Shown: piece by piece, positions 6,101 through 57,545 of the stretch
How positions within the stretch are numbered: position 1 is the stretch's first letter
Layout of the letters: each line of letters starts with the position of its first letter
From: a virus
Taxonomy: Duplodnaviria > Caudoviricetes
Direction: 5' to 3' (one strand)
Length of the DNA: 57,545 nucleotides
IMG/VR virus record: IMGVR_UViG_3300032285_005159
Span: 1-57,545 of that record
Notes under the pieces: model-generated
The model's input: the letters and a program-made list of their open reading frames with translations, nothing else
What the model was told of the DNA's origin: nothing
Database searches by the model: none
Translations under genes and position numbers: made by a program

Positions 6101-9100
6101 TACGTTTCATCGAACGCTTCGTTTTCGTTCATGCGGCCTTCAACCGCGTAACGCAGATTTTCTGGAATAGCAGTGCCGTACTTGGCTTCAATTCTAGCCT
6201 GAGTTTCTGCACGTAGGGCCAAAAGCCTTGCGCGAACTTCGCGTTCGAACTCGGTCTTTGGATTGGTTAAAATTTCGGAAGTGCCAAAGTGACCAAGCTC
6301 GTGCAGCAACGCGTCAACAATTCCTCCGCCGTTGTCCGACGCAGCGTTTAGCGCAATGATTTTGCTGGAACCCAAGTAGCTTCCGGTTGTGGCAACATCG
6401 TTTGGTGCGTTGTACACAAAAACTGGGCACTGGTCCACCCCCACGCTTAGCAAGAACTTTGCGGTTTCACGGTGCTGCTTGCTTTTACCAGACCGAATAA
6501 TGCTTTGCAGTACGGCCTTAACGTCCATTGCGCCTTCCTTAATTCCGTGCTTGGCGAACTGGGTACGGTGCTGGGCCCGGAGCTTAGCAAAGTGGTTCGC
6601 TTGAATAGCCCGATTAGCCGGGGTCATTGCGTCCTGCTGAACCAAGAAGTCCAGTAAGGTATTGGTTCGGCCTTGCTGTACATTTTGAATTGCAACCGCA
6701 ACTTGCGCTTGTGAAAAAGCAGCGAGATCCAAACCAGCGGCTAGCTCGGGCCCTACAATTCGGAACAATTCTTCGGTAGTGGTAAACGATTCAGGATCCA
6801 AGCCAAGCTGCACAGCAACTGCCTTTAGCTCTTCAACTAGTTTTGGGTTAACGGTGTTATCCGTAATGCGGCTTAGCGCGTAGTTGGCCTCGGACTCCAC
6901 AGCGGCTTGGCCTTGGTCCGAAACTACTGGTGCGCCATTTTTTGTACGCTTGTTTTTGCGGCGTTGGTTTGACTGCTTTTGCTTGGCTGAAGCAGCGGCT
7001 TGGTTACGTTGTACGTCAACGGCCTTTGAGTTTGCCACTGCGTTAGCAAAAGAATCTGCGGATTCTTGACCACGGCCTTCGTAAACTTGGCGCAGCTTTT
7101 GCGCGTTTTCGCCAGTAACGTACGCGTAAACGGCCTTGCCATTTTTATTCTGGACCAACACGTACATTGAATCAATGTCACCGTTGTCCGCAACCTTTAC
7201 GTTAACCAAGCTAGGCGTTGTTGGCGCGTTGTACCGAGTCTTACCATAAACAATTTCGCCAGCGTCAGAAACGGTAAGGGCAACTCGACGGACTCCCCGG
7301 CGCGGGCTAACCAAGCTAGGCTCTGCAACGGCTCCTTCGAAACCTTCGAACTCCGTGGCTGGCATATCAGCGTTTGGAGTAACCTCAATTGGCGGCTCGT
7401 TAGTTTCTGGGTCCAGCAGCACGCCGTCAGCCTCAACACGAACGCGGCCGCGTGTTCCGTTAATAATTACTAACTGACCGTTAAGATCTTTAAAGGTACG
7501 AGTTTCGTCAACAGTTGGCGTTGGCTCGTTACCTTCGCTTACAAACTTAACTCCGTTGCGGGTAAGGTAAGCCTCAACCTGAGCTTGGTCGTTCCAGTCA
7601 ATGTCGCTTTCTGCGGCTACGCGGTCCGCACGTTGGGCAACGTACGCTTGTATATCGTTTGGCGTAATTGTTGCGTTGCCTTTTTTATTAGCTTTTCCTG
7701 AACCCTGAATCGAGTTTAGCTCTTCTTGGCTAACGCCAAGTTCAGCGGCTTTCTTTGCAGCTAAGGCCGTGGGCACCGATCCACTTGGGGTAAGCACGGT
7801 TGGCTTTTGGCCAATGTTTAAGGGTTGCTCTGGAGCTTCATCCAAAGCAGTAACAAGGTCAGCCGAGGCTGGACGAACTGGAATGCGTTCGCTTACTGGT
7901 TGAAAGTTACGGTTTGCAATTTGCAAACGGTTCTTTAGCGCAGCAACAGTTTCTGGACTTTGGCCGTCGGCTTCTAGCTTACCAATAATGTTGCTTAAGA
8001 ACTCGCCTTCAACTGACTGCGCAACGCCTTGTTGGCGATCTCTAATTTCATTTACTTTGCGTGCATTGCCAAATGCGGGTACGGCTGTACCATAAGCAAA
8101 ACCAATAACACCAGCTTGGAACGCGTCTTTTAAGGCATCTACCAAGTTAAGGTTTTCGTTATCCAGCATTGCATTGGCAACTGACTGGCCAAGCTGGTCT
8201 ACAAATTCTTCTGAAAATTCACCAACACCTTCTTTAAGAATACCGTAACCAGATTCTTTGGCAGCCTCACGTACCACAGACTTAATTACCCCCAATACTT
8301 CTTCGCCGCCCAAGCTGCTACGCTCTAACGCACCGCTTACACGGCTGGTATAGTACTTAAGCTGGCGCAAGTTTACGTTGCCGTAGTTTACTGCGTCGGC
8401 ACCTTCACCAAAAACTTTACCGGAAGCTTGCTCAACTAACGCAGTAATAGTTCCTGCAACTAGCGAGTGCGTAAGTGCTGCCTTATGAATTTCTTCGTCA
8501 GTAAATTTGCGCGAACCGTCTGGGTTAAACTCAGAACGCATTGCAATTGTGGTATCCACGTACTGACTTTCAGCAGAACGAGCAAAGCTCGTAGCGCGTT
8601 GTGCGGCTACGCCAGCAGCTTGTGGAATTATACGGTTACTAAGGTCAGCCTTAATCCCTTGGAATACTTTATTTACCAAAGCAGAGTCTGCTTTAACTGC
8701 TGCTGCCCCAACGTCGGCAAAGTTACGAACGTAGCTTTGTCCAAAAAGAGCGCGTGTTTCGGGGCTTAATGCTTTTGCAATCCAGTTCTTACCAACGTTA
8801 CCAGCAAAGTCTTTTACGGAAGTTGGTATTAAGTTCCGCATACTTGCGGTTGCCCCAGCCTCTGCTCCAGCTACCAAAGTTTCTTTTAAGGCTGCACGGC
8901 CAAAACCTTTTGCAAGGCCACTAACGCCTCCTGAAATTGCAATGTCTGCAATCATAGGTGTGGCTTGGCTTAGGAACTGATAACCCGTTCCAAGATCAGA
9001 ACCATAAAGGTTCGCGTATTTACTGCGCGACGCTTCTAACTCTGCATCGCCAACAGCCCAGTCCAAGAAAAAGTTTTTTCCATTTTCAAAGCCAACGGCG

Positions 9101-10662
9101 TTGCTAACGCCTCCACCAATTGCCTGAACAATTGGGTTAAATGATTTACCAACTGATGCAAGCACACCGCTAGCTTTTGCAGCTAAAACATTCCAGTCCT
9201 TACGGTTAGAAACCTCGGACATATAGTCTTCAACTAACTGAGTCTGGCTAGGCTTTTTAGTTGGGTCTTGCTTTGCAAGCCATTCAATACGGTAGTTATT
9301 AAACTTATCTCCGTCGAAGTCCTCGAACGCTTGAGTAACAGCGTCTACGTCTCCAGCCAAGTAACCCTTGCGTGTAATTTCAGCAGCAGCTTTTGCTCGG
9401 TCGTCTAAGCCAAGCTTATCCATAGCTTCCGCAAATTTTTCTTTTGGCAGCAAAGCAGTTGATGCAAGCGGCGCGTACGTGCCGTTACTAAGCTTAACAA
9501 AGTTCTTTGTTGGATCTTCGTTGTTAACGGGTACTTGCAAGCTTTGCTTTACCAAGTCTCCAGCAGCATTAACGAATTGTTGCTTGGTGTATTGCGAAAA
9601 AATTTCGTTGTTTGGGTACGCTTGCTTAAGCGAATCGTAAAGACCATTTAGTTTAGCCTCTGCAATTTTGCCTGTGTTTATAACTTTAGCGGGGCTAACA
9701 AGAATATTACGTCCACCAAGTGACTCGTACTCTGAAGGTTTTTTTACAGTAATTTCTCTACGTAACGCTTCTTCAGAAGTCGCTCCTTGACCGTATGCCT
9801 CTTGCTGAATTTCTTTTGCTGAATTAAGCGCGTCTTGTACTTGCTGTGCAGCGTTTGCTGATGCTGGGTTTTTGGAGCCAACGCGCTCATTAGATCCAAT
9901 AATCCATTGCTGAAGAGTTGAGTGAAGATTGTCTTCGTAAGGAGCTGTGTCCCGGCCGGGAGTTTTCTGAACTTGCGTTTGCGCAAACTTTAAAGTTGCG
10001 GGACTATTAAGCCCGTCCGAACGCTTGTACGAATCCAGAATAGAGTTAGCGTCCTTTGCAACTGCGGGGTCCGGGTTAATCCAAATGCTGCGGTCGCCCT
10101 TATCATTGGCAGTATACTCAACGTAGCTTAGGCCCTTTTCCTTTGCTGCCCGAATCCGTGCATCACGAATCTGGTCTGGTGTACCGTACTGCGTTTTATA
10201 GGTATTAAAAGTAGTTTCTTGTTCGGGAGTCTGCACAACCAACTGGCCAGTTTTTTTAGCCTCGTTTGCTTGGTCGTAATAACTTTGAAAAGCTGCGGAA
10301 GCTTCTGGGTCGGTGTCGCGCAAAGAGCTGGCCAAAACGCCGTAGTCCTGCAATGGGTTTTTAGTAACTTGGTCCGAGAAGGTACGGAAAGATTCATTGA
10401 GCTTAGACTCTGCTTCTGGATCGTCTTGCGCAGGTGCCTGTACAAAGCCACGCTTAACGGCCGTACCAAAAAGATTTTGACTAACTGTGCGGTAAGCCTC
10501 GTCCGGGTCTTGTCCAGCTTCGACCAATGCTCCTGTGGAGTAGCCAAGATAACCGCCAAAATCTGCGGCACTCTGTGCTGTTGTACCTTGCTTGGCCTCC
10601 CACTCTTTTAAAGTAAGAATTTCATGGTCAACCCCGTTCTGATCTTTTTGAATTACCGACAT
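1..10662 (-). CDS. Giant polyvalent virion/ejection protein, N-terminal 3554 codons (continues across the junction to 54075; ~4669 aa total)
   Basis: ATG at 10662 (MSVIQKDQNGVDHEILT...). No ORF-track entry terminates in this frame, so it runs off the window, in frame with the 54075..57491 ORF (position 69 = 57491). Motifs: HELGH (6289-6303), YHGT...GFYFS...VVFDPSQIKS (~1815-2241), YHGGT...GYGYYT...GYDGLVI (~1290-1641). Confidence 0.9.
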   Translation of the reverse strand, partial: MSVIQKDQNGVDHEILTLKEWEAKQGTTAQSAADFGGYLGYSTGALVEAGQDPDEAYRTVSQNLFGTAVKRGFVQAPAQDDPEAESKLNESFRTFSDQVTKNPLQDYGVLASSLRDTDPEASAAFQSYYDQANEAKKTGQLVVQTPEQETTFNTYKTQYGTPDQIRDARIRAAKEKGLSYVEYTANDKGDRSIWINPDPAVAKDANSILDSYKRSDGLNSPATLKFAQTQVQKTPGRDTAPYEDNLHSTLQQWIIGSNERVGSKNPASANAAQQVQDALNSAKEIQQEAYGQGATSEEALRREITVKKPSEYESLGGRNILVSPAKVINTGKIAEAKLNGLYDSLKQAYPNNEIFSQYTKQQFVNAAGDLVKQSLQVPVNNEDPTKNFVKLSNGTYAPLASTALLPKEKFAEAMDKLGLDDRAKAAAEITRKGYLAGDVDAVTQAFEDFDGDKFNNYRIEWLAKQDPTKKPSQTQLVEDYMSEVSNRKDWNVLAAKASGVLASVGKSFNPIVQAIGGGVSNAVGFENGKNFFLDWAVGDAELEASRSKYANLYGSDLGTGYQFLSQATPMIADIAISGGVSGLAKGFGRAALKETLVAGAEAGATASMRNLIPTSVKDFAGNVGKNWIAKALSPETRALFGQSYVRNFADVGAAAVKADSALVNKVFQGIKADLSNRIIPQAAGVAAQRATSFARSAESQYVDTTIAMRSEFNPDGSRKFTDEEIHKAALTHSLVAGTITALVEQASGKVFGEGADAVNYGNVNLRQLKYYTSRVSGALERSSLGGEEVLGVIKSVVREAAKESGYGILKEGVGEFSEEFVDQLGQSVANAMLDNENLNLVDALKDAFQAGVIGFAYGTAVPAFGNARKVNEIRDRQQGVAQSVEGEFLSNIIGKLEADGQSPETVAALKNRLQIANRNFQPVSERIPVRPASADLVTALDEAPEQPLNIGQKPTVLTPSGSVPTALAAKKAAELGVSQEELNSIQGSGKANKKGNATITPNDIQAYVAQRADRVAAESDIDWNDQAQVEAYLTRNGVKFVSEGNEPTPTVDETRTFKDLNGQLVIINGTRGRVRVEADGVLLDPETNEPPIEVTPNADMPATEFEGFEGAVAEPSLVSPRRGVRRVALTVSDAGEIVYGKTRYNAPTTPSLVNVKVADNGDIDSMYVLVQNKNGKAVYAYVTGENAQKLRQVYEGRGQESADSFANAVANSKAVDVQRNQAAASAKQKQSNQRRKNKRTKNGAPVVSDQGQAAVESEANYALSRITDNTVNPKLVEELKAVAVQLGLDPESFTTTEELFRIVGPELAAGLDLAAFSQAQVAVAIQNVQQGRTNTLLDFLVQQDAMTPANRAIQANHFAKLRAQHRTQFAKHGIKEGAMDVKAVLQSIIRSGKSKQHRETAKFLLSVGVDQCPVFVYNAPNDVATTGSYLGSSKIIALNAASDNGGGIVDALLHELGHFGTSEILTNPKTEFEREVRARLLALRAETQARIEAKYGTAIPENLRYAVEGRMNENEAFDETYAVNEFVAHYFASQTFRNQLDELNGKGERSLFQKFVDIIGSWFSGKRLADPESRALAEAMLDLKKAVAEGNGLPARSVQQILASRAAVAREDGFGPMYGVPNPHPRTSFKWINHQTDSLQDGIFSEDQLRALIKTGKFGAFTAENPDVTVQTEEANAAFNERAKQWLADRGYVADLVVGRYGNGENSFLVEGFTDQDAVDFANEFGQESMATDKGLFYQDGMYQPRDGEELDIPADEASDDNYFTNVRTTEGKIITVRVMYADYKLDSGLRPSKDVITATGSESQIVRNVQNQKEFATVLSKDTAKPFVLDGNTLLVNEGLVNEVYGNYGFDEQTSLVERDLAVAVAHELAIQKVGYDTHVALEDVGLTPAKVIEGAANNELTASDLQDLLALGDQSKNFVAAAFAEIGKRNTGENERLAVAQNRLGDLYRYLQRNGDDIPQEAENFSDTLSDTDVAIAERLRPVEPTKFFSKAYSGFNAADLKPGQALGTRNPTGKSATESGIDPMSLISLDVMARDPKAYRTNALYLTEYPIVAREFPELAAMVRKLRTKHEKTSGEIRVNADQIKRYKKVLKDLLTVDKVKATDAQFEDALLLENGGLTGQAGKDFAKNQAALEKCLAKSTKLKALGTEQKSAMTKKLAEFASDPNHPIAKLAPQIYDVVIQNTQSNLEALINLFPKSLRNVAKLWYDGANKIANEFGAQYAQDIEQASGVLAVFSPQKDWFMNIALAERTMKIWHEQVILGNPNGLVWSPAMTAQWLKRGGEPQITTEATDGTKPIYEKGKVKAVYDSNGEHVLDEQGNPMFTGWSNANAEAGRAKAREVLKNVEGRALKDLAIEDQARFIRMYSEVNDSPAFMKYAPDGTNTQEASRSETSGKEIKIGWGSYSTVQKAIRIMSSDKNTKLKVVSKELGNMHKVRSFYNNIVDPNNEDGHVTMDTHAVAALYWQALSGNSFEVSQNFGSSNVTNNSILGVNGMYAANAEAYRAAAQNFGLLPREIQSITWEAVRLLFPAKWKSNKKNVDAVRAVWAQYEQDKNFTIEDVRAAVFQLATGKDINQAYANTEDLALSLGFPSWAEVELRKGEAGEVPLEQAAPTIQRSRANVTTLYHQTDIDGLMMLLPQTYSDLPFGPPETYFATNKDLALSQRKNAGVLLEFDNNFSTQVPRATKPGSAFVAASGGGEELIAYIQPSELKKHISAITLNKVQAPKGYIVAVKNWIKQLEAQGWTKTSNPEGGFTVRKPVDNRDAATKMDADYLAAVDAGDTATAQRMVDEAAKAAGYDSANPKYHGTDKKGFTVFENRGGKVYILFSVENVDRQGFYFSNDPEIAQSFGKNVGKYYLKSSNTADLTKLDNSVHVRLVDAGISDRWLRATETWALFDEEDGKVFVQTLRDLGYDSAVIDEPSVEGERDASVSTVVFDPSQIKSADPVTRDENGNVIPLSERFNQGTADIRRSRAVVTEEGILNRLRTPKVSVNPPNGQPLYVTGYHGGTFDGRTPMKASSEGVYGYGYYTTPDVTRAKDYAVAARKEMGQAEVTTFDLLLKKPLVVKVSNKARGPALVFEALGLSGEKAEAKAEHLFEQYGNIGKHFKSLGEKQGYDGLVILNTDGTIAESVAWTRDSLTVDDNAPTIQFSRAALAPTTEQESKAFASATKNKRSGELAVAAIRLAEGQIDNATFADLVEVLDPWVVKGARAIPPIEQVKRYIVARRDGKILSADEEKKVGKVMEDLGIPEGQVIDWRIDIPTYNESLKHGEVTYAITAHPLNNVGKTIGYTNIARVRNGRVMTRVEKGNPMTIAQGGGKFPLATVQGENVKIDRLPSDINDPTVWAEIAYNPARSSEFVDVRTKLPVLTFSDAIMVGSRVFMKNPTYDSKPRYQQPRVNLAGELTGEIDMRYSKSAAPALFRGKEVQLTHWSFDSDLKTTDPTMHGTGGIGAEKDRKRDYKKIYQPRTYFGYSSYVREYIIGPFRYQIKVAGDSLYDYEADPLDLYPSRDERVAAGYARFDDRAANTMYEKAIKDHGFAGFVCKSHTAGV

Positions 10663-10675
10663 AGCGTATGCCGTC

Positions 10676-10705
10676 AAGGTACGCTAAAAACGGTTCAAGA
10701 GTCAA
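10676..10705 (-). promoter_or_regulatory. Sigma70-like promoter of the giant gene
   Basis: TTGACT-N18-TACCTT, 13 nt upstream of the ATG at 10662. Confidence 0.55.
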
Positions 10706-42270: not shown

Positions 42271-42311
42271 AAAAAAGTTAACCCCGCCTATTTTTAATAG
42301 GCGGGGTTAAC
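42271..42311 (-). terminator. Rho-independent terminator after the scaffold gene
   Basis: 16-bp stem GTTAACCCCGCCTATT plus T6. Confidence 0.85.
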
Positions 42312-48444: not shown

Positions 48445-48539
48445 GTACTATGGTTCTAGTACTACGAACCTAGTACTACGGATCTAGTACTACAAACCTA
48501 GTACCTGTTAGAATAATCTAACAACATCTAACAGGTACT
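48445..48539. repeat. Four 14-bp tandem repeats followed by a 13-bp inverted repeat
   Basis: GTACTAtggttCTA, GTACTAcgaacCTA, GTACTAcggatCTA, GTACTAcaaacCTA; then AGTACCTGTTAGA...TCTAACAGGTACT. Confidence 0.85.
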
Positions 48540-48654
48540 TTCCAACACCCAAACCTTGCCCGTTTTTCTAACAATTTAAAAAAAGTTTTGGCCCTGCAAC
48601 CCGCATAAAACCTAGGAAAACTGACTTTCTTGCCCCGCCGCCAAAAAAAAGTTG

Positions 48655-48715
48655 TAGACAGTTTCGGTGGGCCGTGTAGCTTGTGGTCGTTGCTGACAGC
48701 GGCAACCAACCAACC
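48655..48715 (+). promoter_or_regulatory. Early promoter, 5' hairpin and AACC-repeat initiation region
   Basis: A-tract, TAGACA-N16-TAGCTT, hairpin GTTGCTG/CGGCAAC, then CAACCAACCATG. Confidence 0.5.
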
Positions 48716-48892
48716 ATGAAAACACCAACACCAAAACCAACAGACGCCACTCACGTCAGCGGCGGGCGTTTCTTCAGAGTCACCAAGATTCAAGGCTCAC
48801 GGGTGTGGGCCTGCAAGTGGATCAAGTCCACTAACCGGTGGTCCAGACCACAGGAGTATATCAACTTTAACGTGGCGGGAGGTGACGCGTGA
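48716..48892 (+). CDS. First early protein, 58 aa
   Basis: MKTPTPKP after AACCAACC; GTGA overlap with the next gene. Confidence 0.6.
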   Translation: MKTPTPKPTDATHVSGGRFFRVTKIQGSRVWACKWIKSTNRWSRPQEYINFNVAGGDA

Positions 48893-49395
48893 GTTACGCC
48901 TCAAGAAAATGGGCGGCTGGACAAGCCGCCCGTGATGCCGCTCAAGCAGAGCGGTACGCAAGGCAGCCATCCATACCTGCCATTGACTACGTGGCTTTGG
49001 CTAATACCCAAAGCGAGGCCGAAGCCAAAGCCAAGGCCGACGCAGAGGCTAGGCTCCTGTGGGAGCAAAGCCCAGAAGGCTTGGCCCATTTCGCGGCCTT
49101 AAGAGCAGAGGTTGCCGAGGCCAAAGCCAAGGCCGAAGCCGTTGCCGCAGACAACGCGGCGGCTATTTTAGCCCTCGAAAAATTGCTCCCCTTAACTGTG
49201 GAGCAAGTGGAATCACTCCCCCACCACAAACAGGAGCTAACTGATTGCGTCTGCCCCAAGTACGGGGCAGTAATCAAGAGCCACAAGGCTCCCAGCCGCT
49301 ACGGCCACGGGAACTGCACCTATTCGTGGGTTGCAGTGGTTTCGCTCGATAAAATAACAAGTGCGGCGGTAGCTTCGCTGAAACCAACCGCCTGA
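48889..49395 (+). CDS. Early hypothetical protein, 168 aa
   Basis: Ala-rich ORF whose TGA stop is part of hammerhead 1. Confidence 0.7.
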   Translation: MSYASRKWAAGQAARDAAQAERYARQPSIPAIDYVALANTQSEAEAKAKADAEARLLWEQSPEGLAHFAALRAEVAEAKAKAEAVAADNAAAILALEKLLPLTVEQVESLPHHKQELTDCVCPKYGAVIKSHKAPSRYGHGNCTYSWVAVVSLDKITSAAVASLKPTA

Positions 49396-49439
49396 TGAGG
49401 ATCTCCGGCGGGAGATCGAAACGCCGAAAGGCGTCGCGG
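49388..49439 (+). ncRNA. Hammerhead ribozyme 1 (type I topology)
   Basis: Stem I CCGC/GCGG, CUGAUGA+G, stem II GAUCUCC-GGCG-GGAGAUC, GAAA, stem III CGCC-GAAA-GGCG, GUC cleavage triplet (cut after 49435). Confidence 0.9.
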
Positions 49440-49468
49440 ACGCAAACAATAGTCCCAACCAACCAACT

Positions 49469-49804
49469 ATGAACAAAGAAATCGACCTGAATATCGGGTT
49501 GGCCATTGGCCAGCAAAACAACGCGCTTACCAGTAGTCGCGTAAACCACGAGCTCCAGCTCTTGGGGCTCGTACAGGGTAAAAACAGGATCGCCCAAAGC
49601 GGCACCGAAACAACCTACGTTGTACGGTGCCAAGACTTGGGCGGGGCACCCATTGCGGAAAGGATCCACAAGCTGGCCGCAAGGCTCCAGCAGGACTGCA
49701 TTGCGGCTGTGCCGCGTTGCGGGGCTCCACCGTTCTTGGTGGGACCCGACGCCCACAAGTGGGGCGGGTGCTTCTTGGCCGCCCACTGGTTAAGCCTTGA
49801 CTAA
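49469..49804 (+). CDS. SAM lyase-like early protein (T3 gp0.3-related, tentative)
   Basis: TETTYVVRCQD...LAARLQQDCIA resembles the T3 SAMase segment TEEKTVRVRCKD...LACNEWEQDCVL as I recall it. Confidence 0.45.
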   Translation: MNKEIDLNIGLAIGQQNNALTSSRVNHELQLLGLVQGKNRIAQSGTETTYVVRCQDLGGAPIAERIHKLAARLQQDCIAAVPRCGAPPFLVGPDAHKWGGCFLAAHWLSLD

Positions 49805-49805
49805 C

Positions 49806-49856
49806 CCGCCTGATGATGGCCCCTTGCAAGGGCCGAAACGCCGAAAGGCGTCGCGG
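49806..49856 (+). ncRNA. Hammerhead ribozyme 2
   Basis: CCGC, CUGAUGA+U, GGCCC-CUUGCAA-GGGCC, GAAA, CGCC-GAAA-GGCG, UC, GCGG (cut after 49852). Confidence 0.9.
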
Positions 49857-49885
49857 ACGCAAACAATAGTCCCAACCAACTAACC

Positions 49886-50056
49886 ATGACCACTGAAACA
49901 ATAGATTGCACCCCAACGTGGGAGTTCGCCGCCACCGTTTACATCGCCGTACTCCAGAACCCAGAGGCTAGCTTCGAGGCCATTACAGCCGCCAAGGGCG
50001 AGCTTTTGCTGTTAGCTCGCACCGTGGACCAACTCAACTCCAACCAAGAACCTTGA
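49886..50056 (+). CDS. Early protein, 56 aa (below ORF-track cutoff)
   Basis: MTTETIDCTPTWEFAATVYIAVLQNP...; start follows hammerhead 2 and an AACC leader. Confidence 0.7.
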   Translation: MTTETIDCTPTWEFAATVYIAVLQNPEASFEAITAAKGELLLLARTVDQLNSNQEP

Positions 50057-50073
50057 ACCTTGAACCAACTACC

Positions 50074-50733
50074 ATGAAACTATCAGATAAAATCAAAATC
50101 GCCGTTGCCTTGCACGGCAACCAATTCCGCGCCGTACAAGCCCAACTGGTGCATGACCTAGGACCAACTCCCGTGGCCTTGCACCGCAGCATTAACCACA
50201 GCGGCTGGAGCCTTACCAGCGTGCACTGCGGCTTCGTTATTTGCCGAGGCACCACCAAGGCCAAGGCCGTGGCCCACTACCAGCACATACTGGCCCACCG
50301 AAGCCCAGAAGAGGTTCTGGCGCGGATCCAACTGCGGGCCCCCGCACCATGCCCAGACTCTTTGGCCGAAGCTCACTTGGGCAAGCCAAGGTCCAGCGCA
50401 CAGCAACAGCCGAGCTCGGCCGTGGCCGTGGCCGCCGCCATTGCCGAACGCGCCGCGCTTACCACGGACGAGCACCAAGCCGTGGTCCGCGCCTTGTGCA
50501 AGGCTGGACCTAACGCTGGCCGATTGCTGGCCAAGGCTCCTACTGGCTACCGCGACCCGCTAGGCCAAGCCGCTTGGAACGGGCTCCAGCCCAACCCGTA
50601 CAAGGTCCAAACCAGTAGCATTCTGTTTGCTGGACCAACGGAAAAGGCCTTGCTGGATAAACTGCACGGAAAGAACTGGCCAGTATGGCTTGACTCCGAC
50701 GCAGATGCTCTGGTAAAGCTGGGCGTGTGGTAA
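50074..50733 (+). CDS. Early hypothetical protein, 219 aa
   Basis: MKLSDKIK after an AACCAACTACC leader. Confidence 0.7.
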   Translation: MKLSDKIKIAVALHGNQFRAVQAQLVHDLGPTPVALHRSINHSGWSLTSVHCGFVICRGTTKAKAVAHYQHILAHRSPEEVLARIQLRAPAPCPDSLAEAHLGKPRSSAQQQPSSAVAVAAAIAERAALTTDEHQAVVRALCKAGPNAGRLLAKAPTGYRDPLGQAAWNGLQPNPYKVQTSSILFAGPTEKALLDKLHGKNWPVWLDSDADALVKLGVW

Positions 50734-50756
50734 AAACCAACAACCGACAACCAACC

Positions 50757-51134
50757 ATGAGCAAAACCAGAATCCAACTCGACTGGGCCCCAGTGGTCCG
50801 AAGCCTAATCCACCGCCTACAGCAAGCCAACTTCGCCGTTGTTTCAGTACACGACGGGGAAGAACGGCACAAGTACTCACCGGACGCGCCGTTGTCCAAG
50901 GTACGGGCTCAAGCCGCTAACGCCGTTTGCGTGGTGGACGAGGCAACCCTAACCGTACTGGACCTAACGTCAGTAGAAACCCGCAAGCTAGCCCTGTTTA
51001 TTGTGCTTGGCAATAGCCCCGAAGAAATCGTGGCTGACTGCTCGTGCGACAATAGGCTTGACGACGTATTGGAAGAACACCACATTGCTTGGCGCGACAA
51101 GCCTTGCCCAACCATAACCGTAACCATCAAATAA
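50757..51134 (+). CDS. Early phage protein, 125 aa
   Basis: SVHDGEE...VDEA...IVLGNSPEEIVADCS pattern; AACCAACC leader. Confidence 0.7.
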   Translation: MSKTRIQLDWAPVVRSLIHRLQQANFAVVSVHDGEERHKYSPDAPLSKVRAQAANAVCVVDEATLTVLDLTSVETRKLALFIVLGNSPEEIVADCSCDNRLDDVLEEHHIAWRDKPCPTITVTIK

Positions 51135-51135
51135 A

Positions 51136-51363
51136 ATGGCAAAACGACATAAGAAACTAACGTCCCACTACTTCGCGCAATGGCGCATTGTAGTTGCTCA
51201 CGAGGAACCCCACACCAAAGGCACCCGTTACTACGCAAGAACGTTAAACTGGTACGCCTTCCCAATTGAAAGCGAAAGCAGTGAGTTCCGCGACGCCGTT
51301 CACCAAGGCTTCGGAGGAATTGAAAAGGCCGAAACAAAATTAACGGCCCTGTACTATAGCTAA
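51136..51363 (+). CDS. Early hypothetical protein, 75 aa
   Basis: Its TAA abuts stem I of hammerhead 3. Confidence 0.65.
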   Translation: MAKRHKKLTSHYFAQWRIVVAHEEPHTKGTRYYARTLNWYAFPIESESSEFRDAVHQGFGGIEKAETKLTALYYS

Positions 51364-51422
51364 CCACCTGATGATGGCCCCCGGCGGGGGGTCGAAACCC
51401 CGAGGCAACCAGGCGGTCGTGG
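51364..51422 (+). ncRNA. Hammerhead ribozyme 3
   Basis: Stem I CCAC/GUGG (compensatory versus CCGC/GCGG), CUGAUGA+U, GGCCCCC-GGCG-GGGGGUC, GAAA, longer bulged stem III, GUC (cut after 51418). Confidence 0.85.
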
Positions 51423-51449
51423 ACGCAAACCTTAGTCCCAAACAACACC

Positions 51450-51830
51450 ATGAACAACCAATACCAATACCAAACCGAAACGCTACAGGCCAGCGAAAAG
51501 CTGTACCAAGTAGGGCCAAAGTCCATTGCAAGCCACGAGCAAAAGCTCGGGCTAAAGGAACACGAACCACTTATCGTGATTCTTGATTCGTGTATCCGGT
51601 ACGCCAAAGCGTACCAAAGTAGGTACGAAATCCCAGTTGCCAGCGACTACGTTTTAGGCCCGGCCCTACAGCAAATCCTACACGGCGTGCAATCGTTGCT
51701 GGACGGTTGCGGCGCAGTTAGCTTAGAGGCCAACCAGTACCAAGACTCAAAAGACAACGGCGTTTGCTCGACCCTAGTTGAAACCTGCCTAGCCTTGGCT
51801 GGGTACACCACCGAACACTATGACCTATAA
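51450..51830 (+). CDS. Early hypothetical protein, 126 aa
   Basis: Start follows hammerhead 3. Confidence 0.7.
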   Translation: MNNQYQYQTETLQASEKLYQVGPKSIASHEQKLGLKEHEPLIVILDSCIRYAKAYQSRYEIPVASDYVLGPALQQILHGVQSLLDGCGAVSLEANQYQDSKDNGVCSTLVETCLALAGYTTEHYDL

Positions 51831-52047
51831 ACTAAACTTGCTAACCGTGCCGCTGGTTCTAGCCTTTTTGGCTGGGACAGTGTGGCTTACCAACCACCAC
51901 CTAACCGAAACCTTACTGCAATGGCTAGCCCGTTAAACCACGCTTGTACCCTTTGCGGTAGCCGTAACTGGCCGGACCCAGAAACAACTTGTCCGTTGTG
52001 CTGGGGCCCAGCCGAACCCGAACCAGACCCAGACCAAGACCAAGACC

Positions 52048-52335
52048 ATGAAACCAACCACAGCAATTAAACAGTCACTGGCCCTTGTAGGGCCGCTCTA
52101 CCAAATAGCCAACAACTGGGCGTTCCTAACGTTTGACCCGTTCTACAACGTGCACCGTGAAAGCACTTCGTGCAATTACTGGCAAGCGTACGGCAACCGC
52201 CGCGTGGCACTTATTGAAAGCGCGTTAAGCCTGTTGTTCCCAGACCACGACCAGTACCTTAGCGTGCTCCAGCCGGAGTACCGCCACGGCCGCTGGCAAG
52301 ACTGGGTTTGGAAAATCTACCGTGAAAACACATGA
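52048..52335 (+). CDS. Early hypothetical protein, 95 aa
   Basis: Packed array with ATGA overlap. Confidence 0.6.
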   Translation: MKPTTAIKQSLALVGPLYQIANNWAFLTFDPFYNVHRESTSCNYWQAYGNRRVALIESALSLLFPDHDQYLSVLQPEYRHGRWQDWVWKIYRENT

Positions 52336-52586
52336 CTCGAAACGAACTATACCGCTCGGCATTGGACCACTTTTCAAAGCCGTTTGAAGTCCAAAGAAAG
52401 GTTTGGGCCTACTGGATCCAAAACCCAGACGGGACCCAAACCATAAGCCCCACAGGAAACTTCTACCAAGTTGCGTACCAGCGCAAAGTCCGTTTAGTGA
52501 ACCATTGCCGAGCCTTGCTCGGTTTGGGCCCACTTGCGGATGTAGACCCCACAGAAGACTGGCAAACACAAGTACCACAAACATGA
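52332..52586 (+). CDS. Early hypothetical protein, 84 aa
   Basis: ATGA overlaps; NFYQVAYQRKVRLV loosely echoes NYWQAYGNRRVALI of the previous gene. Confidence 0.6.
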   Translation: MTRNELYRSALDHFSKPFEVQRKVWAYWIQNPDGTQTISPTGNFYQVAYQRKVRLVNHCRALLGLGPLADVDPTEDWQTQVPQT

Positions 52587-52870
52587 AAACAAAAGAACAA
52601 ATCGAACAGCAAAGCAACCTAATCCATACCGCCCTGCTTTTGGGCGGATTCTACAGCGTTGAAAACGACCAACACAAAATCCTATTGCCTTGCGGCATTG
52701 AAATCCTGCTACAGTGGGAGCCGGACCAACACGTTGGCTTTACCTGTAACGGGTACCACCGAGTCCAGTACTCGTTTGCTAACCCACGCAACTTGGCTCG
52801 CCGGATCCAAAGCTACGTCTGGGTAATCTGCGACGAGTGGGATCAAACCAATTACTACCTAAACAAATGA
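52583..52870 (+). CDS. Early hypothetical protein, 95 aa
   Basis: MKTKEQIEQ start with ATGA overlap. Confidence 0.6.
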   Translation: MKTKEQIEQQSNLIHTALLLGGFYSVENDQHKILLPCGIEILLQWEPDQHVGFTCNGYHRVQYSFANPRNLARRIQSYVWVICDEWDQTNYYLNK

Positions 52871-52999
52871 CCAAACAAAGGCTTGACGCAATTGAAGCGG
52901 CGTGGCAATACCTCGTGCGCAAAAAAGCAACCAATAAACCAGATACCCTAGTGCTCGGCCGGAACGTAATATTCTGGCGCAGTACAACCAAAGTAAACC

Positions 53000-53227
53000 A
53001 TGTTTGACACACTTAAAACAACCGACAGCGGCGACCTTTTGCAGTGCATTAGCGAGCCGCACGCCGTGGACTTGTTAAGTACCTGTGGCCCAGACCACCT
53101 GTACTTGGACCGCTCCAACATTTTCGTAGACAGAGACTCGACCTTCGAGTATACTACGCTTCGAACTCTTGGCAAAGCAACAATTGCTGGCCGTAGATAC
53201 CGCAAAAACAACAACAAAAACAAGTAA
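53000..53227 (+). CDS. Early hypothetical protein, 75 aa
   Basis: AAACC-ATG context. Confidence 0.55.
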   Translation: MFDTLKTTDSGDLLQCISEPHAVDLLSTCGPDHLYLDRSNIFVDRDSTFEYTTLRTLGKATIAGRRYRKNNNKNK

Positions 53228-53231
53228 GACT

Positions 53232-53666
53232 ATGCACGGAATTAACGAAATCAAAAAGCAAAACGCACAAGCAAAAGCAAACTACGACAACAGCCGCCAA
53301 GGCACGTTCTGCGTACTTCAAAACGGTAACATCCTACTACGTTCGGGTGCCCAATCAAAGACCATTGAATGCAAGGAGGAAGCCGCTGAGTTCTTGGACC
53401 AAGTCCGAGGCCGCACCAGCGGGTTCGTTCGTGGCGTGGTGCAAGGGCACTTTCCACAGCAGGACTTGGAACAGCAGTTTGAAGACAGCCGGAACGGAAC
53501 GTACAGCGTGTTGGACGACGGGTCGATCCTAATTCGGAACGGCTTGTCCGCCCGAACCATTGACGACAAACAAAGCGCGGCCGAGTTCTTGGCCAAGGTT
53601 TTGGACCGCCCTACCGAATTCGTTCGCGGCGTGGTGAAATCGTACTTTGAGCCAGCCACTGCATGA
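53232..53666 (+). CDS. Early protein with an internal ~60-aa tandem duplication
   Basis: SRQGTFCVL..G.ILLR.G...AAEFL...FVRGVV occurs twice. Confidence 0.75.
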   Translation: MHGINEIKKQNAQAKANYDNSRQGTFCVLQNGNILLRSGAQSKTIECKEEAAEFLDQVRGRTSGFVRGVVQGHFPQQDLEQQFEDSRNGTYSVLDDGSILIRNGLSARTIDDKQSAAEFLAKVLDRPTEFVRGVVKSYFEPATA

Positions 53667-53743
53667 CCCTACTACTATTCTGGGTGTTTCTAGTGTGCTC
53701 AATTTTGGGCATTGTGGATGCAGTCATTAGCGTATTCTGAAAC

Positions 53744-54025
53744 ATGACTCGTGAATCTTGTATGGCGTCTCAAGTATTTTGGGACCGCACCAACCACGAC
53801 CGAATTATGATTGAGGTCCACCGATTCAAGGTTCGAGAAGAGGACGATCCAAACGCCGAGCGTTTGTACGTGTTCTACAAAAGCAAGCTAGCCACAATCC
53901 GTTCAGTACCCGCCGCCATTGACGCGGTAGTTGCTAACCGGATCCACCGATTCTTTGGCAGTCTACACCCAGACGTGCCGGAACTGACGGAACAGCTTGA
54001 CCAATGGCTCGAGCAAAACGTTTAA
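53744..54025 (+). CDS. Early hypothetical protein, 93 aa
   Basis: Last + strand ORF before the terminator. Confidence 0.6.
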   Translation: MTRESCMASQVFWDRTNHDRIMIEVHRFKVREEDDPNAERLYVFYKSKLATIRSVPAAIDAVVANRIHRFFGSLHPDVPELTEQLDQWLEQNV

Positions 54026-54033
54026 CCAAAACC

Positions 54034-54070
54034 AAAGCCCCAAGGTCTAATAAACCTTGGGGCTTTTTTT
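54034..54070. terminator. Terminator between the convergent early region and giant gene
   Basis: AAAGCCCCAAGGT/ACCTTGGGGCTTT stem with a long T-run on + and A-runs upstream. Confidence 0.85.
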
Positions 54071-54074
54071 GTTT

Positions 54075-57000
54075 TTACTGGTTCAGCGGAATGTTGCGCG
54101 GGGTATCCCGAATAACTTGCTTTAGGAAGTCCACTCGGGCTTGGCCATTAGCTTCACCCCCGCGCTCTAGCATATCCTTAAACAGGTCCGGCGGAAACAC
54201 CACGCGGTCAACAGCGTTTCGGTTTAGGATTTGGTTAACGCGGTCGCGGCTAAAGCCAGCGTCGGTAGCTTGTTTCTTAAGCTCCTGCATTGATACGCCA
54301 AGACTTTCGTAGCCAGCCATAGTTTTCTTTAACTTCTGGGCCGCGTACACACGGGCGTCTTGCAAGGTTCGGTACGTGTTTTCAATGTCTTGCTTGCCCA
54401 AAGTAGAGTAGCTTAAGAACTTGCCACGCTCTGGGCTTACGTCGTCCAAGTCACGCTTGGCCTTTGCAAACGCTTGGTGCGCTAGCTTGGTTAAGTCGTA
54501 CCTACGTGTTTGGAAAGGGCTGAATTCGTTAGCCACAAGCTCGGCCGCCGTGGCCAACCTTGCGTCCTTATCGTACACGCTTCCGTTGGTATACGCCTCG
54601 AACGCTTCGTAGAACTTCTGTGGAGTCTTTAACCTGTACGCGGTGCTGGCCAAGAACTTACCGATCTTTAGCGCGGCCGTGGCAGTGCTATCGTTTTCGT
54701 AGTAGATCTTACCGCCTCGGTCGTCCACGTTGTTAAGGACCTTTGCAAAAGCCTGTACCGCAATTTGTGGGGAAAGAAACGCTTCGGCAACCGCTTTAAT
54801 TGCTACCATTGGAGCTTCTGAGCCTCGCTTATTAGCTATTAAGTGCAAGCTACGAATAACCGGATCCATAATAATTGAGAACGGTAGCACGTAAGTAAGG
54901 TTCCACATCTTTACCTTGTTTGGATCCTTCGAGTCCTTGGTAAAGTAGTAGTTAACGTTCTGCGCCCAAGCCGGAAGACCATTACGGATCGCTTGTTCTT
55001 TTTCGTCATCGTAACCGCCAGCAAGCTTAACAAGTTCTGGTACAGTACTTAGTGCAAGCGAAGTCATTAAACCACCAAGCCTTAAACGGCCACGCGTTTT
55101 TAGTACTGGGTTACCAGAATTCATTTCCTGAAAGGACAGTTGTCCAGTTGCGAAAACAATACGTGCTGCTTCAGTGGTAAAGCGGAAGAAGCTATTAAAC
55201 AAGGTAGACAACAGCTTGCTCTTTTGGAACGCTTTAACTAGCGCAGGATTTTCCGAGTTACCTTGAGTTGTTTTACGTACCGTGCGTGCTGCCAACTGTT
55301 TAATTTGATTATCGGTCCACTTAGTGGTATTGTGCGCGTTGGCTTTTGTGTATACGCCCACTTCGTGCGAGTAGTAAGCAAACTTATAAACCAAGTCAAT
55401 TGCTTCAGCGGCTCCGGCTAACGAATCAAACACAGTATTAACCGCTTTAACTGGAGCCGTAACAGCAGTTACAGCGGCCGACGCTAACTTGCCCTTGCTA
55501 CGAATTGTTTGCTCGAGCTTGGCAACAAAGTTTTCTGGGTCGTCCCGCATTCCAGCAAGAAGCTCACGCAATACTCCAGCGTTCATTGAATCCTTAATAC
55601 CCAAAGCAATAAGGTCAGAACCCAACGGGCCCAGTTCGCTTAAGCTAAACTTCTCGTCTGGGCGCAATGCGGTTGGCATTACTTGCAAAGCTCGGTTCCA
55701 GAAGTTTGTTCCGTAGATTTCGTTAAGACCTTTAAACGCGTCTGCAATGTTTGCTGGGCTTGCAACGAAACCATTGCCAATCATAAACGCAACGTTGCCT
55801 AGCAAGTTACGGGTATAGAATCCAGCGGATCCAAGGGTAATCATACCCAGTGACTTACCAACTACGGCGGCCAATGCTTCATCAACTTTTTTAATTAGTT
55901 CAACGGCGTCGCCCTGCTTCGCTTTAAAGTCTGGTGTAAAGGATAACTGAAACGCTTCCTTAACTTCTGGCGGCGCGTAGAAGTTTGACAACGGCTCGCC
56001 GCCCAACGTTTTGGTAGAGTTTAGTAAAGGCTCGTACAGCCTATACTTCTCTGGGTCCTTTGCCTTTTCGTCGGCCGTAATTAGGAAACCATTGGCAACC
56101 CCAACGCTAGTGAACTCGTTAAGCAACCGCTGTGCGCCCACGAACTTAGCCAAGTTCGAGTAAGTACGGACGGCATTTTCAACTGGGTTCTGTACTTCAC
56201 CAAGGATCGCTACCAGCTCGCGCGGCACTTCACCTTTCTCCATGAACCGTGAAAGGTCAGTCTTGTTTGTAATTTTGCCCGGGATTTCTGGAGTATTGCC
56301 GTGCTGTTCAATGAAGTTGTCCAGCTCGATTGAGCCAACCGACTTGGCCTTAGCTTCGGCCTCGACCAAGGCTTGTACTTCGGCGTCCGAGAACACCGCG
56401 TACAAATCATTTGATCTCCAAGTCTTAAACGTACGCTTTACCCAAGCCTTTTCAAAGAAGTCTCTGGCTTCCTGCCTTGCCTGTGCAAAGGTTGGGTCTT
56501 CTTTAATCTTCTGAACGTAGCCTTCGTCGTGGTGGATTTGGTAGCTACGGGTAAGGTACACGCCCAAGTTCTCAGTAACCACCGCACGCATTGGATCGTT
56601 TGGTCCAAGCGACTCAACCAGTTGCTGGCTTAGCGAATCAATTGCAGCGCGGAACTCAGTTACAACTTCGGCAATGCGTGGACTGGTTTGCTCCAACCTG
56701 AACAACGCTTGTTGCTGCGCGGCCATTGCAGACTTAACTCCTTTAGCACGGCCAGCCTGAATTTCTAAATCGTACGCTGCGTTGGCCGCAGTAATTGCAG
56801 CGTTGCGCGTTTGCTTTTCAGACGAGTTAGCAAGGTCCGCTTGCAGTACGGTAACCTCGGCTTGGTAACGCTTAACGTCTTGGTGGACCAAGTAATCCGC
56901 ACGAGCTTGCGCTGTGGCTTTTTTGTATGTGGCGTACGCTTTGTCGGTTTGTTGGAACTGAACGTTAGCCGCTTCAATAGCCGCGTCCCGTGTTGCTCGG

Positions 57001-57422
57001 GCCGCGTCGCGGTCAGCCGCTGAAACGGTGGGGGCCGTGGTGCCCAACGCAACGTTAACGTCGTCTAAGTCTACGTTTGAATCTTTCTTTAACGCGTGCA
57101 AGAAAGTCTTGGTAAGCCCAGCAACCCGCGCGTTGGCCAAAGCCATTGCGCGCTCTTGGTACTGTTTGGCCTCGAACATCCGTGGATCCAAGTTTCCAGA
57201 TGCACGGAATAAACGGGTAAGCTTGGTTCCAAAGTTGTACTCGCCAGTAACTTCGTTAATGGCTAGGTCGTCCAACGACACGCGGTAAGCGGCCTCAATG
57301 TCCGGCGAGGTAACTGCGGTAACAGCACGGCTAAGCAATGGCTTCGGTGCTTTAGGCTTCGGACTCAAAGCAAGGCTTCGGTCGCTATCTGGAACTTTGG
57401 TAACCTTGTGCTTACCAAACAA
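54075..57422 (-). CDS. Giant polyvalent virion/ejection protein, C-terminal part
   Basis: In-frame continuation of 1..10662; helical region resembling the C-termini of podophage ejection proteins (LPD38/gp16-like, tentative). Confidence 0.9.
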   Translation of the reverse strand: MFGKHKVTKVPDSDRSLALSPKPKAPKPLLSRAVTAVTSPDIEAAYRVSLDDLAINEVTGEYNFGTKLTRLFRASGNLDPRMFEAKQYQERAMALANARVAGLTKTFLHALKKDSNVDLDDVNVALGTTAPTVSAADRDAARATRDAAIEAANVQFQQTDKAYATYKKATAQARADYLVHQDVKRYQAEVTVLQADLANSSEKQTRNAAITAANAAYDLEIQAGRAKGVKSAMAAQQQALFRLEQTSPRIAEVVTEFRAAIDSLSQQLVESLGPNDPMRAVVTENLGVYLTRSYQIHHDEGYVQKIKEDPTFAQARQEARDFFEKAWVKRTFKTWRSNDLYAVFSDAEVQALVEAEAKAKSVGSIELDNFIEQHGNTPEIPGKITNKTDLSRFMEKGEVPRELVAILGEVQNPVENAVRTYSNLAKFVGAQRLLNEFTSVGVANGFLITADEKAKDPEKYRLYEPLLNSTKTLGGEPLSNFYAPPEVKEAFQLSFTPDFKAKQGDAVELIKKVDEALAAVVGKSLGMITLGSAGFYTRNLLGNVAFMIGNGFVASPANIADAFKGLNEIYGTNFWNRALQVMPTALRPDEKFSLSELGPLGSDLIALGIKDSMNAGVLRELLAGMRDDPENFVAKLEQTIRSKGKLASAAVTAVTAPVKAVNTVFDSLAGAAEAIDLVYKFAYYSHEVGVYTKANAHNTTKWTDNQIKQLAARTVRKTTQGNSENPALVKAFQKSKLLSTLFNSFFRFTTEAARIVFATGQLSFQEMNSGNPVLKTRGRLRLGGLMTSLALSTVPELVKLAGGYDDEKEQAIRNGLPAWAQNVNYYFTKDSKDPNKVKMWNLTYVLPFSIIMDPVIRSLHLIANKRGSEAPMVAIKAVAEAFLSPQIAVQAFAKVLNNVDDRGGKIYYENDSTATAALKIGKFLASTAYRLKTPQKFYEAFEAYTNGSVYDKDARLATAAELVANEFSPFQTRRYDLTKLAHQAFAKAKRDLDDVSPERGKFLSYSTLGKQDIENTYRTLQDARVYAAQKLKKTMAGYESLGVSMQELKKQATDAGFSRDRVNQILNRNAVDRVVFPPDLFKDMLERGGEANGQARVDFLKQVIRDTPRNIPLNQ

Positions 57423-57545
57423 CACTCCGGCCGTGTGGCTTTTGCAAACAAAGCCAGCAAAGCCGTGGTCCTTAATTGCTTTTTCGTACATGGTATTGGC
57501 AGCACGGTCGTCAAACCTTGCGTAACCTGCTGCAACACGTTCGTC
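57423..57545. repeat. Terminal direct repeat, copy 2
   Basis: Identical to 1-123. Confidence 0.95.

Follow-up and report, generated by a model that had tools for sequence, protein, structure and literature searches.

The window analyzed here, 57,545 bp in length, is the whole of IMG/VR virus record IMGVR_UViG_3300032285_005159 and represents a complete phage genome, with direct terminal repeats of 123 bp and a CheckV completeness of 100%. Three RNA elements, E1, E2 and E3, lie in the sense strand at gene junctions within a run of small co-oriented genes. Judging from their sequences, we have little doubt that E1-E3 are genuine hammerhead ribozymes, and we think it probable that they process the RNA of the operon in which they lie. 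The assignment rests on their anatomy, on membership in a phage family recognized by an independent covariance model, on covariation of the stems and on a conserved position between neighboring genes.

Anatomy of the three elements

Each element has a complete catalytic core and three stems in the type I topology, and all three read in the + direction.

49388..49439, + strand: hammerhead E1 (type I), predicted cut after C17 at 49435. Stem I, CCGC 49388-91 with GCGG 49436-39; core CUGAUGA 49392-98, then an extra G at 49399; stem II 49400-17, GAUCUCC/GGAGAUC, 7 bp, loop GGCG; GAA (G12-A14) 49418-20; stem III 49421-34, A-CGCC/GGCG-U, loop GAAA; C17 at 49435.
49806..49856, + strand: hammerhead E2 (type I), predicted cut after C17 at 49852. 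Stem I, CCGC 49806-09 with GCGG 49853-56; core 49810-16, then an extra U; stem II 49818-34, GGCCC/GGGCC, loop CUUGCAA; stem III 49838-51, the same as in E1.
51364..51422, + strand: hammerhead E3 (type I), the least canonical, predicted cut after C17 at 51418. Stem I, CCAC 51364-67 with GUGG 51419-22; core 51368-74, then an extra U; stem II 51376-93, GGCCCCC/GGGGGUC, loop GGCG; stem III 51397-51417, longer and imperfect, with a bulge and internal mismatches.

The hammerhead core follows an established consensus, spanning C3-A9, G12-A14, the A15.1-U16.1 pair and a position H17 that is not G. This consensus (C3 U4 G5 A6 N7 G8 A9, G12 A13 A14, A15.1-U16.1, H17) is complete in E1-E3 and in all 30 parsed copies of the subfamily described below, and natural hammerhead representatives match it in the parts of Perreault et al. 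covered here (PMC3088659). Stem II of the three elements has 5-7 bp and begins with G10.1-C11.1, and stem III is closed by A15.1-U16.1. An unpaired G or U stands between A9 and position 10.1 in E1-E3 and in 30 of 58 members of the wider family. The long stem III of E3 also occurs in a related contig (L132:6339), where it pairs better. A preliminary description made from the letters of the window had placed three full-core, three-stem hammerheads here and had noted that stem I covaries between CCGC/GCGG and CCAC/GUGG; our reading of the sequence confirms both points, and the model hits given below confirm the first.

The elements adjoin stop and start codons. In E1, the UGA of the core itself (49393-95, positions U4-G5-A6) ends the open reading frame (ORF) at 48889-49395, which overlaps the ribozyme by 8 nt, whereas E2 and E3 begin directly after a TAA (49802-04 and 51361-63). 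The earlier claim that each element starts at or within 1 nt of an upstream stop codon is thus correct for E2 and E3 but not for E1. The next ATGs, at 49469, 49886 and 51450, lie 33, 33 and 31 nt past the predicted cuts, as had been described. A single copy of GGACGCAAAC follows each element, and the window has no others; to this extent the conserved leader proposed earlier stands. Its AACC-rich part is not confined to the ribozymes: it also precedes the hammerhead-less genes at 48716, 50074 and 50757, is found with or without a ribozyme from 48716 to ~52048, and is restricted to genes at 48.7-52.3 kb. We therefore regard the AACC-rich leader as a feature of the operon rather than of the ribozyme cassette. 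In addition, 47 nt at 49834-49880 in E2 are identical to 49417-49463 in E1, forming a direct repeat that flanks gene A, the single gene between these two elements.

Two further pairings were considered and dropped. Stem I could be extended distally in E2 (GACUA/UAGUC) and E3 (GCUAA/UUAGU), an extension lacking in E1 and in the related contig L125, and a pairing between the tail and loop III (UUGCG/CGCAA) holds in L125, L130 and L131 and not in the window.

Family membership and covariation

In a blastn comparison with cultured phages, E2 matches an intergenic element of Faecalibacterium phage FP_Brigit (84% over ~55 nt), which is located between gp72 and gp73, directly past a TAA and ahead of a ribosome-binding site and ATG. 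At least 122 stretches in IMG/VR match a strict pattern, CCGCCTGATGA...CGAAAC...GTCGCGG. We constructed a covariance model, R1, from 56 non-redundant sequences of the relative loci, none of them from the window. With filters off and both strands of the 57,545 bp searched, R1 finds exactly E1-E3, and the next best hit has an E value of 1.4; a search of the phage's own genome gave an identical result.

49386-49451, + strand: R1 hit to E1, 51.0 bits, E 1.4e-10.
49804-49868, + strand: R1 hit to E2, 55.9 bits, E 8e-12.
51362-51434, + strand: R1 hit to E3, 41.5 bits, E 3e-8.

A further R1 hit at 48636-48714 (E 3.8) is without a core and is not a hammerhead. As defined by R1, E1-E3 can be placed in a large group of phage hammerheads with a short stem I (4-5 bp, open), to which the IMG/VR loci and the FP_Brigit element also belong.

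For the family as a whole, 131 hammerheads were parsed in 117 of 125 loci; L002 and the copies of the window (L127-129) were left out, and 58 non-redundant members were kept. Core variation among these relatives is confined to the positions known to tolerate change, N7 (U in 50, C in 7, A in 1) and H17 (C in 56, A in 2). The MAFFT alignments and the model alignment give inconsistent registers for stem II as a result of the extra nucleotide after A9, so we counted pairs from the parsed stems. Four positions not imposed by the parser are paired more often than with permuted partners: II-4 in 57 of 58 members (permuted, 0.69), II-5 in 55 (0.44), III-3 in 54 (0.46) and III-4 in 52 (0.51). At all four, pairing is kept via several pair types. 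Position 2 of stem I, examined in 24 unique subfamily sequences, is G-C in 13, A-U in 11 and mispaired in none. G10.1-C11.1 and C15.2-G16.2 are present in 24/24 of the unique subfamily sequences and 58/58 of the family, although the parsing rule partly imposes these counts.

The position of the ribozymes is conserved as well. In 46 of the 58 members the stop codon of an upstream ORF, 40 codons or longer, falls within the interval from 5 nt before stem I to the core UGA; the UGA of CUGAUGA is the upstream stop codon in 20 of these 46 and is used whenever the reading frame permits. A start codon with an ORF follows no more than 150 nt downstream in 54 of 58 members, at a median distance of 34 nt (26-46 nt in 32 of the 54).

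Homologues of gene A are encoded by IMG/VR contig L125 (71% identity) and by metagenome contigs L130-L135 (53-62%); contigs carrying gene A homologues include two of 58.6 and 62.9 kb. R1 detects 6 hammerheads in L125 and 22 in L130-L135, making 28 in seven contigs, and no hammerhead in the distant loci L126 and L136. Together with the window these contigs give 31 R1 hits, all with a full core and 30 with a fully paired 4-bp stem I; 30 of the 31 copies parse cleanly, the exception being L132:6884, where stem I pairs at 3 of 4 positions. In this subfamily stem I is CCGC/GCGG or CCAC/GUGG, stems II and III vary from copy to copy through compensatory changes, the tail reads G(C/U)GGACGCAA...GUCCC in 29 of 30 copies, and the distance from cut to ATG is 28-42 nt. 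Gene A is bracketed by hammerheads in all six loci for which both flanks are available, and two more loci have one on the sole available flank.

Two other loci show the group, or its neighbors, in different settings. On L066, a 347-kb IMG/VR contig, two hammerheads of the same group lie at 349-561 within a tRNA gene array (eight genes or more), one of them with a stem I of CUGGC/GCCAG, and these ribozymes may separate tRNAs rather than mRNAs. Sub-threshold twister-P1 matches (L069 208-262, 34.8 bits; L046 1030-1066, 23.9 bits; gathering threshold 67.2) are found a few hundred nucleotides from hammerheads on other phage contigs, which hints that mixed ribozyme classes share the same operons there.

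Probable processing of the operon RNA and possible exchange at the cassettes

In the reading that we favor, a polycistronic RNA of small genes, covering ~48.7-54.0 kb of the + strand, would carry the three ribozymes. Each would fold once its GCGG or GUGG strand emerges and would then cut itself after C17 (49435, 49852 and 51418). The upstream RNA would be left with a 2',3'-cyclic phosphate and a compact fold of stems II and III at its 3' end, behind or overlapping the stop codon, and the downstream RNA would have a 5'-OH end and a fixed 31-33-nt leader. Following the cut, the 4-bp stem I would dissociate and its 3' strand would be captured in a GGAC...GUCC hairpin. This capture would prevent reversal of the cut and cap the newly formed 5' end, leaving an AC-rich stretch that lacks a Shine-Dalgarno sequence free for initiation. 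The operon would be split into separately stable and separately translated units, namely the RNA ahead of E1, gene A by itself and the block of four genes, with the rest after E3, an arrangement from which the phage may benefit. The preliminary description also held that the operon is early and that processing without protein is a strategy of this phage; either might be the case, and we carry both forward as hypotheses. The predicted 5' leaders of the 3' products are the following.

49436..49468, + strand: leader of the E1 product; hairpin GGAC 49438-41 with GUCC 49452-55, AC-rich up to ATG 49469.
49853..49885, + strand: leader of the E2 product; hairpin GGAC 49855-58 with GUCC 49869-72, AC-rich up to ATG 49886.
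51419..51449, + strand: leader of the E3 product; hairpin GGAC 51421-24 with GUCC 51435-38, AC-rich up to ATG 51450.

The minimum-free-energy folds of isolated E1 and E2 are three-way junctions (z -3.05 and -1.94). The product hairpin takes up 2 nt of the 3' strand of stem I. For E1, folding of the product gives -4.9 kcal/mol, and only 0.1 kcal/mol separates the hammerhead conformer from the hairpin conformer. A GGAC...GUCC hairpin is present in 29 of 30 subfamily copies. In the wide family, where the hairpin is usually GCGG...CCGC, 41 of 58 members have a 5'-terminal product hairpin, compared with 10.9 +/- 2.8 (maximum 22) in shuffled tails. One copy, L131 8057-8131, has lost the GUCC arm (tail GUGGACGCAACCACAACC...) and retains an intact ribozyme. 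We infer from the folding models that the tail may function as a switch, with stem I forming first and the product hairpin after the cut; the same tail could equally brake cleavage. Loop II is also complementary to the strand 3' of stem I in the wider family. Among the 58 members the mean longest run is 3.57, versus 2.83 +/- 0.09 when permuted, and at least 4 bp are possible in 32 of 58, versus a mean of 21% and a maximum of 36% in 200 permutations; many different sequence pairs contribute.

Several observations weigh against active, processing hammerheads in the window. Stem I of E1-E3 is only 4 bp long. The stem III of E3 is imperfect, and isolated E3 has the junction in its minimum-free-energy fold at an energy no better than that of shuffles (z +0.58). 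When flanks are included, neither the E1 centroid nor the E2 minimum-free-energy fold is a hammerhead; the E1 centroid has the product hairpin instead of stem I. Fast cleavage at physiological Mg2+ requires a tertiary contact between the stem I side and loop II. The corresponding pairing between loop II and the tail amounts to 3 bp in E1 and E3 and 4 bp in E2, and to at most 2 bp in subfamily copies with loop II CCGCAAA (two L125 copies), GGCA or CGCC. Because this pairing is short, fast cleavage at cellular Mg2+ is not assured. Within the subfamily the tail is invariant while loop II varies, and the two do not covary. At the family level, the pattern used for collecting sequences fixes the core, stem I, CGAAAC and GUC, so invariance at those positions arises by construction.

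The Rfam search suggested in the preliminary description was likewise negative. Rfam 15 gave no hits at gathering over the window, and its hammerhead models (RF00163 for type I, RF00008 for type III and the others of clan CL00010) detected no hammerhead at E<=10 when applied to 4 kb or to 91 nt around E1, and none at E<=1 window-wide. On 20 related loci the Rfam models yielded three sub-threshold hits (26.8 bits against 34; 26.4 and 25.7 against 48.5). Because the relatives are missed too, we ascribe the negative result to the reach of those models; the missing gathering score is a property of the models and does not define a ribozyme class. The bare pattern CTGATGA..GAAA..TH by itself is not significant, with 3 matches in the window and at least 3 in 24 of 100 shuffles.

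The folding results also bear on the question of whether E1-E3 cut constitutively. They could instead be tuned or conditional cutters, in which the tail hairpin competes with stem I and a terminating ribosome unfolds the ribozyme; partial cutting, set by translation of the upstream gene or by folding kinetics, would then determine the ratio of coupled to uncoupled expression. The hammerhead and the alternative conformer (stems II and III plus hairpin) are near-isoenergetic in all 29 hairpin-bearing subfamily copies (0.0-2.3 kcal/mol apart), which speaks for such tuning, as do the hairpin in the flanked E1 centroid and the stop codon lying inside the core or no more than 5 nt from stem I in 46/58. 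Regulated cleavage of phage hammerheads is raised in the parts of Perreault et al. covered here (PMC3088659). However, nearest-neighbor energies disregard tertiary contacts and co-transcriptional order, the tight spacing of stop and ribozyme may be mere genome economy, and a ligand or protein partner is not indicated. We consider tuned cutting possible but somewhat doubtful, and continue to prefer constitutive processing.

The comparison of related phages for gene changes at the cassettes, which had also been suggested, shows that the gene modules between cassettes vary in order and content. In the module orders below, HH denotes a hammerhead and a dot an unmatched ORF.

Window: HH-A-HH-I-C-D-x-HH-J
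L125: HH-A-HH-z-HH-C-HH-I-W-HH-X-D...HH
L131: HH-A-HH-.-HH-C-HH-.-HH-I...
L132: HH-.-HH-D-HH-.-HH-A-HH-.-C-HH-J

Copy number by R1 is 3 in the window, 6 in L125 and 7 in L132, with 5 in 12.4 kb of L131, and this phage lineage has 3 to 7 near-standard cassettes in ~3 kb of one operon. In L125 and L131, the homologues of the genes between E2 and E3 are separated by extra hammerheads and their order is different. With L130 dropped as a duplicate of L131, the identity over stem II-stem III is 0.804 within genomes (52 pairs) and 0.722 between genomes (326 pairs), a difference that none of 2000 label permutations attained. In 4 of 5 genomes, the cassette copy preceding gene A resembles another copy of its own genome more closely than it resembles those at the corresponding position elsewhere. 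These comparisons, drawn from a handful of partly overlapping contigs, fit concerted evolution and a shuffling of modules through the cassettes. The preliminary description had proposed that the cassette could be a recombination junction for swapping early genes; module order, within-genome similarity and the 47-nt repeat give this idea comparative support, and the cassettes might have such a role, which we put forward as a hypothesis.

The same data could mean that the cassette is primarily a repeat that propagates itself, or a DNA-level recombination module. Ribozyme, tail and leader would then spread and become homogenised within genomes through recombination, shuffling the small genes, and RNA cleavage would be secondary, or neutral for the phage. 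The changing copy number, the reordering at cassette boundaries, the greater likeness of copies within genomes, including that of the copy upstream of gene A in 4 of 5 genomes, the direct repeat around gene A and a GGAC...GTCC inverted repeat that never covaries all agree with this explanation. We nevertheless judge it unlikely. The core is intact in every copy and the stems carry compensatory substitutions, which implies selection on the RNA fold and not on DNA homology alone; moreover, every copy lies in sense orientation at a stop/start junction, and no recombinase gene is recognised in the operon.

Processing and exchange need not be separate. As a tentative synthesis, the ribozyme, the invariant tail hairpin and the leader may form a portable expression-and-exchange cassette for accessory genes, acting as a two-state switch in RNA and as homology units of ~50-100 nt in DNA. 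At the RNA level, a single cut would be followed by locking of the 5'-OH end in a protective hairpin ahead of the leader that lacks a Shine-Dalgarno sequence, a step that we offer with reservation. At the DNA level, gene conversion and the gain, loss and reordering of single-gene modules could conceivably take place at the repeats, and here too we lean toward caution.

That E1-E3 are non-cleaving look-alikes, either chance motifs or decayed relics, is very improbable. Such an origin would suit the missing Rfam match, the short stem I and the bare motif count, and inactive hammerhead-like RNAs are listed in the covered parts of Perreault et al. (PMC3088659); it is opposed by R1 E values of 3e-8 to 8e-12, by a full core in all 31 hits with stem I fully paired in 30, and by the compensatory changes in the stems. 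We give hardly any weight to the idea that the gene A RNA between E1 and E2 is circularised or rejoined, its identical tails recreating an intact hammerhead: the 47-nt ends are identical and the hammerhead mechanism yields the 5'-OH and 2',3'-cyclic phosphate used by RtcB-type ligases, but nothing in the window points to a ligase, and Perreault et al., in the parts covered, considered and sought spliced or circular products and detected none (data not shown there; PMC3088659).

Genomic setting and known systems

The genome is that of a tailed phage in which a terminase, DNA polymerase, helicase, exonuclease and endolysins are recognisable; its DNA polymerase has at most 27% identity to those of cultured phages. 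The ribozyme-bearing operon consists of small genes of unknown function and adjoins a repeat-rich upstream region.

48716..54066, + strand: probable transcription unit with all three ribozymes, extending from ATG 48716 of the first gene with an AACC leader to a terminator-like hairpin at 54034-54066, according to ORF layout, leaders and a terminator scan.
48889..49395, + strand: ORF upstream of E1, 168 aa, GTG start, ending at the core UGA.
49469..49804, + strand: gene A, 111 aa, the only gene between E1 and E2.
49886..51363, + strand: four-gene block between E2 and E3 with no internal ribozyme (49886-50056, 50074-50733, 50757-51134 and 51136-51363).
51450..51830, + strand: first gene after E3, 126 aa, function unknown.

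The ORF upstream of E1 has no family match and is unrelated to the ORF in the same place in L125, which likewise ends at the core UGA. For gene A, a match to S-adenosylmethionine lyase (Pfam PF23780) did not reach the gathering score and no fold match rose above background, and the assignment is not established; gene A is possibly a distant S-adenosylmethionine lyase, and we treat this as a lead only. In phage T3, S-adenosylmethionine lyase has an anti-restriction function.

No convincing promoter was found for the ribozyme-bearing operon. The motif CTAGTAC(TAC) is directly repeated at 48456-48507 (+), ~200 nt upstream of ATG 48716; its four copies have a 14-nt period and may constitute an operator or regulator-binding array of this operon. 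At 54034-54066 a perfect hairpin of 13-15 bp, with T-runs on either side and present on both strands, is likely a bidirectional terminator that separates the + strand operon from a giant - strand ORF. This ORF runs off both ends of the record, as 3559 aa at the start (1-10677, -) and 1156 aa at the end (54075-57545, -); closing the record via the 123-bp terminal repeat would unite the two parts into a single frame of 4,676 codons, and the sole family match is phrog_3842, of unknown function. Elsewhere, a GC-rich hairpin and U-run followed by TTGACG at 42271-42310 (-), with weak look-alikes of the rnk leader and rncO (E 0.6-0.95), is most simply explained as a terminator and then a promoter between late genes.

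A Shine-Dalgarno sequence is absent before all 33 start codons inspected in the window phage, which suggests that the host initiates without Shine-Dalgarno pairing. A host search with the subfamily pattern in 185,579 species genomes returned three stretches and no bona fide hammerhead. The three stretches, from Anaerolineae, Gemmatimonadaceae and Planctomycetaceae metagenome-assembled genomes, do not parse as hammerheads; one has a weak score of 21.3 bits and lacks stem II by eye.

Neither the clustered arrangement of hammerheads nor the processing idea is new, both having been published in 2011 (PMC3088659). According to the parts of that study covered here, Perreault et al. found hundreds of bacterial hammerheads near prophage genes, with clustered sense-strand copies bracketing single genes or short blocks in prophages, such as the anti-restriction gene ardA, and they proposed that long phage transcripts are processed into mRNAs of single-gene or operon length (PMC3088659). 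In vitro, three tandem prophage arrangements underwent the expected cleavage, which for one of them was also observed in E. coli (PMC3088659, same parts). The window resembles those clusters in having several close sense-strand hammerheads around genes of varying identity. It differs in that the tested examples described in those parts are prophages of Clostridium scindens, Azorhizobium and Agrobacterium, whereas here the ribozymes are in a complete uncultured phage without Shine-Dalgarno sequences, and in the near-invariant tail GGACGCAA...GUCCC, although figures of the 2011 study may already show this subgroup.

Type I hammerheads are treated as a recognised bacterial and phage class that flanks small non-conserved ORFs and is persistently phage-linked in the covered passages of the de la Pena reviews (PMC6155905; PMC13725137). 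E1-E3 share their type I topology with a full-length helix III; those passages do not treat a stop codon in the core, a 5' hairpin on the product or homogenisation of cassettes. In the open-access literature searched, which did not extend to the figures and supplements of the 2011 study, we found nothing on the core UGA serving systematically as a stop codon, on the balanced product hairpin or on the homogenisation and shuffling of cassettes, nor did we meet the invariant subfamily tail or the blindness of Rfam to this group. The purpose of phage and bacterial hammerheads is described as an open question in the covered parts of PMC6155905 and PMC6765202, and in vivo cleavage has been captured for phage-associated type II hammerheads by cyPhyRNA-seq (PMC8782182).

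A pseudoknot-type clamp on loop II has already been described for hammerheads (PMC3088659 and PMC11300833, in the parts covered). The complementarity of loop II to the strand 3' of stem I in the wider group is similar, although the crystallised pseudoknot hammerhead, as presented there, has another connectivity, with a pseudoknot in place of helix II. The window subfamily departs from this scheme, with loops II of GGCG, CUUGCAA, CCGCAAA, GGCA and CGCC that offer 2-4 bp and no compensatory pattern.

The fixed start distance, the stop codon touching or inside the ribozyme and the invariant product hairpin of this lineage make several questions directly testable: whether cleavage uncouples cistrons, whether a 5'-OH hairpin stabilises the message, and whether gene shuffling is driven by the repeats. 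A large phage group, represented by at least 122 IMG/VR loci under one strict pattern, escapes the curated Rfam hammerhead models, and Rfam-based counts of ribozymes in viromes are therefore likely underestimates.

The early polycistronic transcript of phage T7 is cut between cistrons by host RNase III, which leaves a 5'-phosphate and a 3'-OH. In both phages a long RNA would be cut between cistrons to give separately stable mRNAs with hairpin-bearing ends, but here the RNA itself would cut, leaving a 5'-OH and a 2',3'-cyclic phosphate, and early timing, a feature of the T7 transcript, is a hypothesis for the window. If the cassettes do act in exchange, the operon would be somewhat like an integron cassette array without an integrase. 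In RiboJ-type insulators of the 5' untranslated region, a self-cleaving ribozyme and a small hairpin standardise the 5' end of the downstream mRNA and decouple expression from upstream sequence; those are engineered parts, and the elements described here would be a natural counterpart, repeated in one operon.

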